Source: an uncultured Clostridiaceae bacterium
GTDB taxonomy: Bacteria > Bacillota > Clostridia > TANB77 > CAG-508
Length of the DNA stretch: 64,000 nt
NCBI GenBank assembly: GCA_948444845.1
Contig: CAOJVB010000003.1
Span: 12,723 to 76,722 of the forward strand
Direction of reading: 5' to 3'
Made by a program: the position numbers and the translations under genes. The notes beneath the pieces were generated by a model. It was not told the DNA's origin. It saw nothing but the letters and a program-made list of their open reading frames with translations, and made no database searches. This document shows, piece after piece, positions 1,771-51,318 of the stretch (its first letter is position 1; each line of letters starts with the position of its first letter).

Positions 1771-1850
1771 AGTATTTTTCGCTATTTTAAGTTGAGATTG
1801 TAGGAGTGAGCAGTACTCGTCAGCGTAGCAAAGCCGCTTTTGCTCTAATT
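1771..1850 (+). repeat. T-element (intergenic repeat family 1), one unit
   Basis: ..GCTATTTTAAGTTGAGATTGTAGGAGTGAGCAGTACTCGTCAGCGTAGCAAAGCCGCTTTTGCTCTAAT, located downstream of ddl. Confidence 0.75.
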
Positions 1851-1860
1851 AAAATAAGGG

Positions 1861-1897
1861 AAGGAATCCATAAAAGGGATTCCTTCTTCTACTTTTT
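1861..1897 (+). terminator. intrinsic terminator after ddl
   Basis: AAGGAATCC-ataaaag-GGATTCCTT followed by a T-rich tail ending TTTTTT. Confidence 0.65.
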
Positions 1898-1917
1898 TAA
1901 TAAATTTTAAAAACATA

Positions 1918-2118
1918 TCAATCTTTAAAAATAAAAATATCATTAGGAGTACACTCTAAAATTCTACAAAGCTTTTCAATAGTTTCAAATCGAATACTAA
2001 TAGTTTTATTATTTATCATATCTGTAACAGATTGAAAATCGCTTTCCATTTGTTGCACTAACCAATATTTAGATTTATTTTTCTTAGCTAATATGTCTTT
2101 AACATTAAGATAAATCAT
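1918..2118 (-). CDS. XRE/Cro-CI family helix-turn-helix transcriptional regulator (66 aa)
   Basis: MIYLNVKDILAKKNKSKYWLVQQMESDFQSVTDMINNKT..IRFETIEKLCRILECTPNDIF is a typical HTH_3/HTH_26 pattern. Confidence 0.7.
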   Translation of the reverse strand: MIYLNVKDILAKKNKSKYWLVQQMESDFQSVTDMINNKTISIRFETIEKLCRILECTPNDIFIFKD

Positions 2119-2276
2119 ATTAACACCTCTATTTTATTTTAAACAAAAATCTGTTATATATTAACTAATATTAAACTTGACTAAGTTATAACATATGTAG
2201 TAAAATATAACCAAACCTAAAAATAGAAAAGTGAATATAGTAATTAAATTAGTTATTTATATGTAGCTTAAGAACT

Positions 2277-2462
2277 TTAGCATTTATTCGAAGAAGAATT
2301 ATTACCATCAATTGAAAGAGTGGCCAAACTATCTCCAATAATAGTAAAAAAACCAGAAAGAGCAACTAATTCATCAGATGTAAAACTTTGAGATAACCAT
2401 ATTGCAATAATGTTAGCGAGAGTAACTAATTCACATCCATTTAATTCACTTAAACAACTCAT
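2277..2462 (-). CDS. small hypothetical protein (61 aa) of a type common in clostridial genomes
   Basis: ORF with the motif CELVTLANIIAIWLSQSFTSDELVALSGFFTIIGDSLATL, which I recall from small Firmicute hypothetical proteins. SD-like AAGGTGG sits upstream on the minus strand. No function assignable. Confidence 0.45.
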   Translation of the reverse strand: MSCLSELNGCELVTLANIIAIWLSQSFTSDELVALSGFFTIIGDSLATLSIDGNNSSSNKC

Positions 2463-2535
2463 ACAAAAACCACCTTATTACATAGATTATGAAGAAAATA
2501 TATAAATGAAAGTTATCCAACAAAAATATTTTTAA

Positions 2536-47530: not shown

Positions 47531-48346
47531 ATGTATAACAAAAAGAAAAAGCAAATAATTGGAATATCAATATCAATAATTATACTTATAATCATAGTAA
47601 TAATGTCAAATATAAAAATAGATAATCTATCATATGCACAAGGTATTACAAACTTTTTTGTAATGCCAATTCAAAATGGTCTAACTTATTTAAAAAATTG
47701 GATATCAGGGAATAATCAATTTTTTACAGATGTAAGCAATTTGAAATTGGAAAATGAAAAACTAAAAGAGGAAAATAGTAACTTACAAAAATCTTTAAGG
47801 GAATATGAAATTATAAAATCGGAAAATGAAACATTAAAAGAGTATGTTAACTTAAAAGACAAATATACTGAATATCAAACAATACCAGCATATGTAATAA
47901 ATAAAGATATAAGTAATTATAGTAATGTAATAGTAATAAATGTAGGAACAAACGATGGAGTAGATGTAAATATGCCAGTAATATCAGACAAAGGACTAGT
48001 AGGTCATATAATATCAGCAACACCTACAACTGCAAAGGTTCAAACAATAATAGACACAGCAAGTAATGTAAGTTGTACACTAACATCTTCAAGAGATACC
48101 TTAATAGCAAAAGGTACATTAGAAGGTAACTCTAACCTAAAAGCCACATATATAGCACCAGAAGCAACTATAATGCAAGGAAACACAATAGAAACATCAG
48201 GTTTAGGAGGAATATACCCAAAAGGAATATTAGTAGGAACAATAAATAAGGTAGTAACCACAAAAAATATAACAGACAGATATGCCCTAATAGACACAGC
48301 AGTAAACTTTAGCAAATTAGAAACAGTATTAGTAATTACAAAATAG
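47531..48346 (+). CDS. mreC: rod-shape protein MreC
   Basis: N-terminal TM, a coiled coil (LKLENEKLKEENSNLQKSLREYE), then VINVGTNDGVDVNMPVISDKGLVGHI and SGLGGIYPKGILVG motifs. Confidence 0.82.
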   Translation: MYNKKKKQIIGISISIIILIIIVIMSNIKIDNLSYAQGITNFFVMPIQNGLTYLKNWISGNNQFFTDVSNLKLENEKLKEENSNLQKSLREYEIIKSENETLKEYVNLKDKYTEYQTIPAYVINKDISNYSNVIVINVGTNDGVDVNMPVISDKGLVGHIISATPTTAKVQTIIDTASNVSCTLTSSRDTLIAKGTLEGNSNLKATYIAPEATIMQGNTIETSGLGGIYPKGILVGTINKVVTTKNITDRYALIDTAVNFSKLETVLVITK

Positions 48347-48387
48347 TTAATGCTGTCAACTTAAAGGATAGTAGTTGAAAATAAAGA

Positions 48388-48535
48388 CATGGAGGGGCTG
48401 CTATTAACCAGTCAGTGCAGCGAAGCCACTTTTGTTCTAATATAGGAAAAATAAATTTCTGATTGTAGGAGTGCCGTTTGTGGTAATACCTCGTGGGACA
48501 AGACTTAAGTTGTGCCCTTTTGTTCAAAGAACAGA
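48388..48535 (+). repeat. T-element array (one unit + one subtype B unit)
   Basis: ATGGAGGGGCTGCTATTAACCAGTCAGTGCAGCGAAGCCACTTTTGTTCTAATATAGG and GATTGTAGGAGTGCCGTTTGTGGTAATACCTCGTGGGACAAGACTTAAGTTGTGCCCTTTTGTTCAAAG, located between mreC and mreD. Confidence 0.8.
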
Positions 48536-48597
48536 TGGACACTAGAAGCAAACTCTGAATATATACAAAGCATGAACAAAAAAGAAAGGAAAAAATA

Positions 48598-49131
48598 GTG
48601 AAAAAATTAATAGTAGTAATAGGAATATTCATAACATTTTTAATTACATATTTTCTACAGTCAAACTTTTTTAGTTGGTTTACAATTGCTGGAATAAAGC
48701 CAAACTTATTTGTAATGCTAACACTATTTATTACACTATTTGCAGGAATAAAATTAGGAATATGTTACAGTTTATTTTTTGGTATATTCTTAGACATAGT
48801 AATAGGAAAAAACATAGGAATATATTTAACTATGTTATTACTTGTTTCAATACTAGGAGGGTACTTTGATAAGAACTTTTCAAAAGATAGTAGAATAACA
48901 ATAATGCTTATGGTATTAGCAAGTACATTATTATTTGAAATAGGAAGTTATATATTAAGTATAATAATGCAAAATATAAATGTTCAAATATTAGAATTTG
49001 TAAAAATATTATTTATAGAAATAATATTTAATACAATAATTACAGTAATAATATATCCAATAATAATACAAGTAGGATATAAAATAGAAGATATATTTAA
49101 AGGGCAAAAAATATTAACAAAATATTTTTAA
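48598..49131 (+). CDS. mreD: rod-shape protein MreD
   Basis: GTG start. A 177-aa polytopic membrane protein directly after mreC. The call rests on position and topology. Confidence 0.65.
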   Translation: MKKLIVVIGIFITFLITYFLQSNFFSWFTIAGIKPNLFVMLTLFITLFAGIKLGICYSLFFGIFLDIVIGKNIGIYLTMLLLVSILGGYFDKNFSKDSRITIMLMVLASTLLFEIGSYILSIIMQNINVQILEFVKILFIEIIFNTIITVIIYPIIIQVGYKIEDIFKGQKILTKYF

Positions 49132-49167
49132 ATGTGTACACAAATAATTTAAAAAGGAGGTAAATAG

Positions 49168-51274
49168 TTGAACAGAATAAGAAGTAAACAAGAAAAATTG
49201 AGATATAATATTGTAACAACATTTGTATATATAGTAGGAATAATACTAATTAGTCAACTTTTTAACCTTCAAATTGTAAAAGGAAAGGAATATAGGCAGC
49301 AATCTAATACACGTTTATCTAGAGAAAGTGTACTTAATGCAGCTAGAGGGGATATATTAGACCAAACAGGAAATAAACTTGCAACAACTAAACTAGGAAA
49401 TGTATTAAATTTATATAAAACAAAAATAGATGATGAAACATTAAACACATCATTGTTAAAAATAGTAAATATATTAGAGCAAAATGGAGATACATATATA
49501 GATAATTTACCAATAAAATTACAACCAATAGAATTTACTATAAATGATGAAGAAGAACAAAGAAAATGGAAAAAGCAAAATAATATAGAAGAAAATAAAA
49601 CCGCAGTAGAATGTTTTGAATTACTAAAAACTAAATACAAAATAACTCAAAGCGATGAAGTAGAAGCTAGAAAAATAATGACACTAAGATATAAAATAGC
49701 AAAAGAAGGATATAGTAACACAAAAACAGTAGAACTTGCAAGTAATGTATCAGAAAAGTCAGTAGCAGTATTTAATGAAAGAAATGATGAATTTCCAGGA
49801 CTAACAATTAGTGTGACACCTATAAGAAATTATTCCTTAGGGAGTGTAGCATCACATATTTTAGGATATGTAAGTAGAATAGATGAAAACGAACTTAAAC
49901 AAAATAAAGGGTACTTATTAAATGATAGAATAGGAAAAACAGGAATAGAATATATTTTCGAACCATATCTAAAAGGCAAAAATGGAATAAAGCAAATAGA
50001 TATGGCAGTAGATGGAAGTATTACAGGAGAAGCAGTAGTAGAAGAAGCAATTTCAGGAAGTGATGTAGTATTAACAATAGATGGTAATCTTCAAAAAGTA
50101 ACAGAAGATGCATTAAAGAATAATATTGAAAAAATAAGAGCAGGTGGATATGGGAAAGCTTATGAAGCAAATGCAGCATCAGCAGTAGTAATGAATGTAA
50201 AAACAGGTGAAGTGCTATCAATGGCAAGTTTTCCAAACTTTGAACCTCAACTATTTGTAGATGGAATAAGCCAAGAAAAATATAATGAATATACTTCAAA
50301 AGAGGCAAATTCACCATTTTTAAATAGAAGTATTTCATCAGTATATGCACCAGGCTCAACTTTTAAAATGGTAACAGCCCTAGCAGCATTAGAAACAGGA
50401 GCAATAACAATTAATGAAAAAATAAATGATGTAGGAATATATAACTATTCAGCAGACTATAAGCCAAAATGTTGGATATATAGTTCTTATGGTAGAGGAC
50501 ATGGATATTTAAATGTAACAGATGCAATAAAACATTCATGCAATTATTTTTTCTATGAAATGGGAGAAAGAATAGGGATAGACACATTATCAAAGTATAC
50601 AAGAACATTAGGACTAGGAAACAAAACAGGAATAGAACTATTAGGAGAGGTACAAGGAACAGTATCTAGTAAAGAAACATCAAAGGAAAAAAATGAAACC
50701 TTTACACGGAGGAAATACTCTGCAAGCAGCAATAGGTCAGCATGATAACAGTTTTACACCGATACAAATGGCAAAATATATTAGTATTTTGGCAAATGGT
50801 GGAAGTAATATAGATGTAACAATAATAAAAGGAATAATAGATTCAAATGGAAACAATATACCAAAGGAAGAAATAAACGAATTTGTAAAAGAGCGCTTGG
50901 GAATAAATAAAGGACCTTTAAACCAATTAACCTTTAATAAACAAAATCTAAATGCTATACTAGAAGGAATGAGAGGAGTTACAAGTGAATCGGGAGGAAC
51001 AGCATATTCATACTTCAAAGACTTCAATATAGAAATAGGAGGAAAAACAGGTTCTGCCCAAACGGGAATTGCAGGAAAGACAAATGCATGGTTTGTAGGG
51101 TTTGCACCATTCGATAATCCAGAAATAGCAGTAGTAGTAATGACAGAAAATGGAGGAAGCGGTAGTTATAACTGTGAAGTAGCACGAAATATAATAGCAG
51201 AATACTTCGGAATGAATGCAACAAAAGTAACAGAAGATATGAGTGCAAAACCAAGCATACAAATACAAAATTAG
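49168..51274 (+). pseudogene. mrdA: penicillin-binding protein 2 (elongation transpeptidase, MrdA-like), frameshifted in an A7 run (50687-50693)
   Basis: TTG start after AAAGGAGG. ORF 49168..50745 carries the PBP dimerisation domain and SxxK (PGSTFKMVTALAALE). ORF 50693..51274 continues in the +1 frame with GGNTLQAAIGQHDNSFTPIQMAKYI and KTGSAQ (KTG motif). Reading A6 instead of A7 joins ..SKEK-MKPLHGGNT.. Confidence 0.8.
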
Positions 51275-51318
51275 AAGTTATTGAAATAGCGCATGGCAAA
51301 GCCACTTTTGTTCACAAA
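51274..51318 (+). repeat. T-element, 3' half-unit
   Basis: GAAATAGCGCATGGCAAAGCCACTTTTGTTCACAAACC, located between mrdA and minC. Confidence 0.6.

Follow-up and report, generated by a model that had tools for sequence, protein, structure and literature searches.

The stretch of DNA analysed here, referred to below as the window, comprises 64,000 nucleotides of contig CAOJVB010000003.1 from an uncultured Clostridiaceae bacterium and represents a segment of a bacterial chromosome with a GC content of 28%. It encodes a variety of housekeeping and surface proteins, such as Ddl, an ABC transporter, a LytR-family protein, PBP5, PcrA and very large proteins of the SpaA/Cna-B type, as well as the gene cluster radC-mreB-mreC-mreD-pbp2-minC, and no tRNA gene was found in it. 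Proteins of the window were matched exactly in gut metagenome assemblies from ENA and Logan, and its nearest public genomes are metagenome-assembled genomes (MAGs) of uncultured Clostridia. A phage or crAss-like origin of the window was considered and ruled out by the chromosomal housekeeping genes (ddl, pcrA, mreBCD, pbp2 and minC). The subject of this report is a family of short, GC-rich intergenic repeats in the window, here called T-elements, which had been noticed in a first-pass annotation made from the sequence.

That annotation described the T-elements as a single dispersed intergenic family of about 17 units, and the existence of such a family is well supported by different detection methods. 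The 3′ module RGCRAAGCCACTTTTR occurs nine times in the window at ≤2 mismatches, on the plus strand only (0.21 expected), and the 5′ module AAGTACNNTATTTYAAGTTAA occurs five times (0.30 expected). Both modules were recovered by a generic repeat finder as families D8 and D9, with a spacing of 84 nt (38993/39077) that agrees with the period proposed earlier for abutting units. A covariance model of the core, mini-hairpin and T-run, named R1, matched ten sites in the window, all of which are intergenic and on the plus strand (Table 1). Seven of these matches had also been used to build the model, and the three remaining ones (51271, 14737 and 47438) are all weak. With regard to the number of units, approximately 14-15 could be verified; two degenerate units, the proposed reverse copy (2536-2608) and the second member of the abutting pair (39087-39166), can be aligned with the others but were not detected by R1. 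The window copies are mutually diverged (61-84% identity to a reference copy), the 5′ module is missing from many of them, and the exact heptamer GCGAAGC, which had been reported from several copies, is present in three (12040, 46285 and 48420). The DNA heptamer d(GCGAAGC) is known for its unusually stable fold. A second subtype of repeat, previously assigned to three arrays, was recognized by a 26-nt pattern at 24778 and 48477 (0 expected), whereas the copy at 46165 is only weak; among all fetched loci this subtype was observed in this species only, and it represents a separate small family. That the repeat had not been recognized as any Rfam family was also borne out, as a scan of the whole window at gathering thresholds gave 0 matches and the T-element regions gave only chance matches far below the thresholds.

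T-elements are not confined to the window, a possibility that would have undermined the first-pass annotation. A pattern scan of 185,579 species genomes, in which GTAGG was imposed by the pattern while the stem region was unconstrained, yielded 76 loci, which came from 20 uncultured Clostridia assemblies (human, Hadza, mouse, rabbit and primate gut) together with two obvious chance matches, so that the module is present in about 20 species-level genomes. Related genomes were compared as 8-kb loci around the matches (designated L below). The strict pattern marked 16 such loci in MGYG-HGUT-00384, a count of 8-kb loci and not of the whole genome, compared with ten copies in the 64 kb of the window. 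A full unit consists of a 5′ module, the tetranucleotide GTAG followed by a GC-rich hairpin of 6-9 bp (the core, a repetitive extragenic palindrome, REP, as discussed below), a linker of 2-4 nt, the invariant mini-hairpin GTGGC-GAA-GCCAC and a T-run. The 5′ module is lineage-specific, approximately 27-40 nt long, often but not always present, and always contains TAGGAAA. The foot of the core hairpin is formed by three G-C pairs (GGG...CCC) with GTAG immediately 5′ of them, a feature that is visible in the multi-genome alignment and hidden in the eroded window copies. This one architecture is realized with many stem sequences, such as TCGGCGTCcccGACGACC, CGATTAgtAATCG, CGCCCtttGGGCG, CGAGCAttGCTCG and TCGATGCCcaCATCGA. 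GTAG directly precedes the hairpin in eight of the ten R1 sites of the window (GGAG is found at 48391, and the site at 14737 is eroded), and it is also found in REP copies embedded in or flanking transposase genes, which were identified independently of the scan pattern.

The mini-hairpin, which contains 5 bp and a 3-nt loop, is followed by TTTT(G) in the window and by 6-7 T residues in MGYG-HGUT-00384, and its conservation in the multi-genome alignment agrees with the earlier view that a GAA-loop hairpin and T-run terminate each element. Some REPs of the clade, including the window copy at 47438, carry a variant 3′ module, TCTTCGAAGAA, in which the C-GAA-G kernel is kept. No terminal inverted repeats, the hallmark of miniature inverted-repeat transposable elements, were seen in the aligned full-length copies. 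Likewise, the alternation of inverted REPs typical of REP doublets forming hairpins (REPINs) and of bacterial interspersed mosaic elements (BIMEs) was not observed, since the R1 copies in the window are on the same strand and the arrays are head-to-tail; inverted pairs were seen only inside the transposase genes described below.

The suggestion that the core keeps its structure and not its sequence could be substantiated by covariation. Both sides of the REP stem have changed in five of seven pairs, with 105 double-changed cells versus 43.7 in shuffles, and 90.7% of the cells are paired, compared to 27-51% when the partners are slid. G.T pairs outnumber A.C pairs by 37 to 8, which indicates that the GTAG strand is the folding strand. 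Because single-sequence folds of T-elements are no stabler than shuffles (z-scores around 0), the evidence for structure is covariation and not folding energy, and thermodynamic stability was rejected as an argument.

GTAG directly 5′ of a GC-rich palindrome with compensatory variation is the definition of GTAG-tagged REPs (PMC3733652), and since GTAG precedes a compensatorily varying palindrome in the T-elements, their core is, on sequence grounds, a member of this known REP class. Both the conserved GTAG and the cognate enzyme, a REP-associated tyrosine transposase (RAYT, or TnpA_REP) of subclass 2.4 (PMC6006769), had been overlooked in the first-pass annotation. Its statement that the element has no name remains valid for the composite with the mini-hairpin, which is absent from the searchable literature (a search with exact T-element sequences returned irrelevant primer matches only), and is weakened for the core, which belongs to the described GTAG-REP superfamily (PMC3733652).

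The RAYT in question was found in MGYG-HGUT-00384 (L072, 782-1306, minus strand). Its predicted protein of 174 aa has the motifs NHVH, WQRNYYEH and YMQNNP, matches Pfam Y1_Tnp, and is similar to NCBIfam REP_Tyr_transpos with E = 3.5e-20 and 72.4 bits, which is under the equivalog cut-off of 80. Among proteins of solved structure, it is most similar to E. coli TnpArep (4ER8, E = 2e-5), with ISDra2 TnpA at E = 0.85. Two in-frame copies of one REP are embedded in the coding sequence (958-1161), a sense copy with the sequence GTAGGGGTCGGCGTCCCCGACGACCC and an antisense copy, and this REP is identical to the T-element core of the same genome. The same arrangement, a RAYT gene with an embedded REP as in the T-elements of its genome, is found in a Hadza MAG (CAKPGS), and further RAYT copies in these two genomes carry other REP types of the respective T-elements. 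Frameshifts are present in RAYT copies whose embedded REP differs in (loop) length (L087 and L088). According to the literature, TnpA_REP subclass 2.4 is distinguished by the motifs NH[IFV]H, WQ and YIxNNP, by long REPs with three G-C foot pairs and by in-frame REPs inside the gene (PMC6006769); by its motifs and its two in-frame REPs, the predicted L072 protein is a RAYT of this subclass.

A total of 369 relatives of the L072 gene were present in the genome collection, 80 of which were fetched (L083-L162). An in-gene inverted REP pair was detected in 57 of these 80 homologues, in which the sense GTAG-palindrome lies around nt 100-145 and its antisense counterpart around nt 250-330; identity between the members is mostly ≥90%, and their sequence differs between lineages. 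The pair sits on either side of the HUH motif in a regular inverted geometry, with apparent swapping of REPs. The mini-hairpin and T-run, which are present at every T-element locus, occur at none of 79 RAYT loci from other lineages, and the composite T-element is therefore confined to the low-GC Clostridia clade. Two further observations concern the distribution of REPs and RAYTs. The REP type GTAGGGGCGATTAnnAATCGCC is found exactly in >119 stretches (L174-L252 and further loci) across many Clostridia and also in MAGs labelled Patescibacteria, Gracilibacteria, Bacteroides, Myxococcales and Marinobacter, which suggests horizontal spread, contaminated bins or convergence. In addition, approximately 3.5 kb of MGYG-HGUT-00384 that bear a RAYT gene (L084, 884-4440) correspond to 174 nt between the same flanks in a related MAG (L066, 6060-6234). 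The whole REPtron region hence behaves as an indel, as the related MAG has no RAYT segment at the orthologous site.

Comparison of orthologous sites revealed multiple differences in the presence of units. Near-identical units of about 80 nt lie beside unrelated sequences in MGYG-HGUT-00384, UMGS1788 and a Hadza MAG; the conserved block in these three genomes starts with a T-run and ends with TTTTTT(A/G)T, and its left boundary is the T-run of unique terminator hairpins. An empty site (L013) could be compared with two filled ones (L009 and L038), in which the insert lies directly 3′ of a terminator hairpin with TTTTTTGT at both junctions. The mreB-mreC and mreC-mreD spacers, which contain units in the window, are 152 and 252 nt long there versus 10 and 26 nt in the L047 orthologues, and, conversely, a bare 42-nt REP plus mini-hairpin is located in L047 in the DUF4321-radC spacer, which carries no unit in the window. 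Similarly, an array in L069 corresponds to an empty orthologous site in L129. The radC-mreB spacer measures 266 nt in the window, and strain L002, which is diverged in the radC region, has a spacer of 19 nt. Between pbp2 and minC, strains L002 and L004 carry 105 nt more than the window, including a full unit with the hairpin GGGTCGC/GCGACCC, and the window allele (51271) seems to have arisen by a deletion between neighbouring units. Presence/absence polymorphism within the species was also considered for the ddl and M23 loci and rejected, as none was seen and contigs merely break at the element. Such breaks are exemplified by six independent Logan contigs (L168-L173), all of which begin precisely with the first base of a unit (39006), as would be typical of a multi-copy repeat, and T-elements thus fragment short-read assemblies of this organism.

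The sites occupied by T-elements tend to have a common context. Of 73 distinct copies, 28 have a strict hairpin plus T-run at a distance of 18-60 nt on the 5′ side of GTAG, compared with 2.5% of random positions, and many further copies have an imperfect hairpin or a tRNA 3′ end at that position. The co-orientation with genes that had been noted in the window was confirmed, as the upstream gene is co-oriented with the element in 71 of 80 cases. Flanking gene pairs are convergent in nine cases versus divergent in two, and elements between co-directional genes are in sense orientation in 55 cases versus antisense in seven. As GC skew in the window's genome tracks the gene strand, orientation by transcription and orientation by replication cannot be separated by this measure.

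Considering these comparisons, it is probable that T-elements are lineage-specific, composite, REP/BIME-like non-autonomous mobile DNA, whose core is of the substrate type of subclass 2.4 RAYTs and which lands at terminator T-runs. The RAYT would cleave and join the folded single-stranded top strand, using GTAG as a guide. GTAG has been described as the guide for CT/CA cleavage (PMC8266576), and by analogy with that work one may speculate that the conserved CA/CT in GCCA-CT-TTT (GCCACTTTT) is the candidate cleavage site. A unit would insert at a hairpin plus T-run, i.e., at intrinsic terminators, and its own terminal hairpin and T-run would recreate the target, which would result in head-to-tail arrays and co-orientation with transcription with no need for selection. 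After insertion, a unit would become part of the upstream gene's transcript, where it may serve as a weak terminator or 3′ stabilizer; by analogy with proposals for REPs generally, such an effect is plausible and would be secondary. A more specific form of this mechanism, which we put forward tentatively, is a terminator-homing REP cassette, in which the subclass 2.4 RAYT would insert the unit of about 80 nt at a terminator hairpin plus T-run exposed as single-stranded DNA, and the C-GAA-G mini-hairpin and T-run would have two functions, namely to expose the cleavage site (GCCACTTTT) and to restore the target. The window copies are eroded, with 69% of the stem cells paired versus 90% elsewhere; in the mobile-DNA reading they are old, and their arrays shrink via recombination between units.

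Several observations weigh against mobility of this kind. Neither the window nor same-species contigs yielded a RAYT, nor was a subclass 2.4 RAYT found in the loci of genomes with a window-like 5′ module, and a REP-type scan for the RAYTs of these genomes detected RAYTs in unrelated lineages only. For this reason, the link to a transposase comes from two related genomes and is extended by inference to the genome of the window. The hairpin plus T-run target has exceptions (for instance, 47438 in the window and position 2700 of L047), and the presence of a T-run on both sides of the insert, either as a duplication or as part of the element, makes the exact junctions ambiguous. Only one orientation is seen, although inverted pairs are the prevailing arrangement of classical REPs, with head-to-tail dimers being rare (PMC3733652). 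Moreover, conservation in the window is higher for the mini-hairpin and T-run than for the REP stem, which could reflect selection for an RNA or terminator role instead of mobility. This difference in conservation would be readily understood if T-elements were kept mainly as RNA or transcription signals, either as a cassette of terminator and 3′ stabilizer or as a small RNA family, and their likeness to REPs were secondary. The co-orientation with upstream genes and the preference for 3′ regions, the hairpin plus T-run at the end of the elements and the excess of G.T over A.C pairs, which fits folding of the transcribed strand, would also be accounted for. Nevertheless, we regard this explanation as unlikely: most full copies lie behind a separate unique terminator and would be redundant as terminators; with a mini-hairpin of just 5 bp and T-runs of four T residues in the window, a single copy (39066) passes a simple terminator rule in a scan of 38-52 kb; and strong termination would be harmful in the mreBCD-pbp2-minC cluster, which contains several copies. 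In addition, the single-sequence folds equal shuffles, sequence inspection revealed no conserved -35/-10 pair, no Rfam match was obtained, and the identity with REPs inside RAYT genes would be left unexplained.

The same identity also bears on the idea that T-elements spread without a RAYT, by recombination or gene conversion between terminator regions, by slippage within arrays or through another enzyme, for example a Y1 transposase from a different family or a transposase encoded by an insertion sequence (IS). Recombination does act on the arrays, as the deletion between adjacent units at 51271 indicates, and the failure to find a subclass 2.4 RAYT in loci of the window-like genomes is in line with this idea. 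A codon scan for MPNHVHM also detected a different Y1 family (L310, approximately 4000-4700, as well as L312, L362 and L364; motifs MPNHVHM and GHLFQDRY; about 230 aa or more) in genomes with the window-like 5′ module (L310). Yet the L310-type gene has no embedded REP and no R1 match within ~3 kb, terminal inverted repeats are absent, the REP core equals the in-gene RAYT REP in two genomes, and recombination alone fails to put near-identical 80-nt units behind many unrelated terminators, which together make a RAYT-free spread quite improbable. The idea that the similarity arises by chance or from the composition of GC-rich patches in an AT-rich genome, for which only the low folding z-scores could be cited, is refuted by motif counts far over the shuffled expectation and by the occurrence of the 45-nt module in 20 other assemblies, and virtually no credence is left for it. 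Some other candidates were also tried and rejected. A tracrRNA-like RNA, prompted by AAGTTAAAAT followed by hairpins, was ruled out by the 11 dispersed copies, the palindromic variable core and the lack of an Rfam match; no relation of T-elements to tRNA or tmRNA was found; and a promoter role of the TATACT/TATTAT box at the 5′ boundary was dismissed, as there is no conserved -35 and promoter-like sites number 76 versus 81 expected.

T-elements share a number of features with the GTAG-tagged REPs and BIMEs surveyed by Di Nocera et al. 2013 (PMC3733652), such as E. coli REP/BIME, Pseudomonas REP and Stenotrophomonas SMAG. In both, GTAG is immediately 5′ of a 6-9 bp GC-rich hairpin, subfamilies are split by compensatory stem changes, G.T pairs are frequent, and the elements are extragenic, mostly 3′ of genes and between unidirectional or convergent open reading frames (ORFs), and form clusters with linker motifs. 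On the other hand, the hosts in that survey are Proteobacteria, Cyanobacteria, Chloroflexi and the Planctomycetes-Verrucomicrobia-Chlamydiae (PVC) group, with Firmicutes and Clostridia unmentioned, and head-to-tail dimers are absent or rare there, whereas T-elements are arranged head-to-tail in one orientation, have their REP fused to a C-GAA-G mini-hairpin plus T-run and to a 5′ module, and reside in a host of 28% GC. The REPtrons of subclass 2.4, or RAYT Group 4 (Quentin et al. 2018, PMC6006769; Bertels et al. 2017, PMC5581495), resemble the system described here in transposase motifs, in their "canonical long REP" and in the in-frame REPs inside the gene; they differ in that they were described mainly from Cyanobacteria, Bacteroidetes and "various phyla", while the composite occurs only in low-GC Clostridia and a RAYT has not been detected in the genome of the window. 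IS200/IS605 elements and palindrome-associated transposable elements (PATEs) are similar with respect to HUH/Y1 enzymes acting on folded single-stranded DNA hairpins, a 5′ guide tetranucleotide and strand-specific insertion 3′ of a short target with no duplication. In contrast to IS200/IS605, T-elements have no left-end and right-end hairpin pair flanking a gene, and the protein is nearer to TnpArep than to ISDra2 TnpA. Class C group II introns insert just downstream of the stem-loops of intrinsic terminators, oriented with the terminator, and T-elements resemble them in target choice only, as they are units of about 80 nt with neither intron RNA domains nor a reverse transcriptase. The kind of REP is known; the Clostridia host and the one-directional, terminator-attached form are previously undescribed.

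Table 1. T-element units and second-subtype repeats in the window, with the evidence for each.
Position	Strand	Feature	Evidence
1771..1850	+	Unit after ddl: partial 5′ module, GTAG at 1800, REP-like hairpin, mini-hairpin GTAGCAAAGCCGC, T-run	R1 1800-1841, 40.7 bits
2536..2608	-	Degenerate reverse unit downstream of minus-strand gene 2679-3287	Missed by R1; alignable by eye/MAFFT
12001..12066	+	5′-truncated unit between convergent LytR-family (+) and PBP5 (-) genes: GTAG, CGGCtatctGCCG hairpin, GTAGCGAAGCCAC, T-run	R1 12012-12053, 50.0 bits; Pfam of flanking genes
14721..14775	+	Eroded, weak unit: mini-hairpin GTAGCGAAACCAC, T-run	R1 14737-14766, 17.5 bits
19505..19605	+	Full unit directly 3′ of a terminator-like hairpin and T-run: 5′ module 19505-19542, REP core from 19543, mini-hairpin GTGGTAAAGTCAC, T-run	Exact match of 5′ module; R1 19543-19588, 40.4 bits
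24563..24645	+	Full unit: 5′ module, GTAG at 24597, GCGG..CCGC hairpin, GTGGCGAAGGCAC, T-run	R1 24596-24639, 39 bits; 5′ module match
24646..24722	+	Next, degenerate unit of the same array	Alignment
24760..24830	+	Second-subtype repeat (GTAGGGTAGCC..TTTGTGGAAATACCTCGTAGGATAAG..)	Pattern match at 24778
39003..39086	+	Full unit directly after the terminator hairpin and T-run of the 4631-aa gene	R1 39038-39082, 50 bits; terminator scan 39066-39078
39087..39166	+	Abutting second unit, period 84; core and 3′ end degenerate	Exact 5′ module at 39097; D9 spacing 84; missed by R1, alignable
46165..46221	+	Weak second-subtype copy	Read by eye; unmatched at ≤3 mismatches
46222..46312	+	Full unit between radC and mreB	R1 46256-46298, 50.7 bits
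47434..47482	+	REP core (GTAG, GCGAGCA/TGCTCGT) with variant 3′ module TTCGAAGAA, mreB-mreC spacer	R1 from 47438, 16.6 bits; same variant follows REPs in related genomes
48388..48439	+	Unit in mreC-mreD spacer, GGAG replacing GTAG	R1 48391-48433, 42.5 bits
48461..48535	+	Second-subtype repeat	Pattern match at 48477
51271..51318	+	Remnant: mini-hairpin and T-run only	R1 from 51271, 26 bits; allele comparison

Some other features of the window were observed in addition to the T-elements. In mreB (46345-47379), a frameshift separates two overlapping ORFs of 64 aa and 293 aa, and three independent assemblies of this strain (L001, L005 and L006) show the same split. Strain L002, with its diverged radC region, has an intact MreB of 344 aa with a different N-terminus. 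The gene for a PBP2-type transpeptidase (49168-51274) is likewise divided into ORFs of 525 aa and 193 aa, which overlap at 50693-50745, in all assemblies seen, including the divergent L002 and L004; possible explanations are a genuine split, a programmed frameshift and a conserved pseudogene. Three tandem paralogues of 556, 567 and 632 aa at 17779-24500 contain Gly-rich repeats and are 70-93% identical over long stretches (repeat families D1-D4), and a Pfam scan of the first (556 aa) gave no match. A single ORF of 4631 aa at 25061-38956, which has many periodic repeats of about 400 nt (T..E...AP.GY motif) and a weak match to Pfam SpaA, probably encodes a giant surface adhesin. In the relative L030, the window blocks at approximately 19665-20239 and from 39176 are just ~0.2 kb apart, with pcrA on the same locus, and much of the window's 20-39 kb therefore appears to be missing there. 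A long GC-rich hairpin (GGGACGGTCCTTTTCGTTCCGATTTCGGAACGAAAAGGAC) at 3339-3400, between the divergent genes 2679-3287 (minus strand) and the ABC-transporter ATPase at 3525 (plus strand), does not belong to the T-elements and may represent a leader or attenuator.

REPs have been studied mostly in Proteobacteria, where the elements occur as inverted pairs. The family described here extends GTAG-tagged REPs and their RAYT partners to low-GC gut Clostridia. For the host, T-elements put GC-rich hairpins inside operons such as mreBCD, whose expression could change. The mechanisms of REP dissemination have been called poorly understood by Corneloup et al. 2021 (PMC8266576), and T-elements provide a readable case for the spread of REPs, with a single orientation, a sharp left boundary at terminator T-runs, recent near-identical copies and empty sites in sister species. 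If the tentative terminator-homing model is true, T-elements would represent a one-directional, self-propagating form of REP spread and offer a natural system, with clear empty and filled sites, in which the movement of REPs by RAYTs could be worked out.

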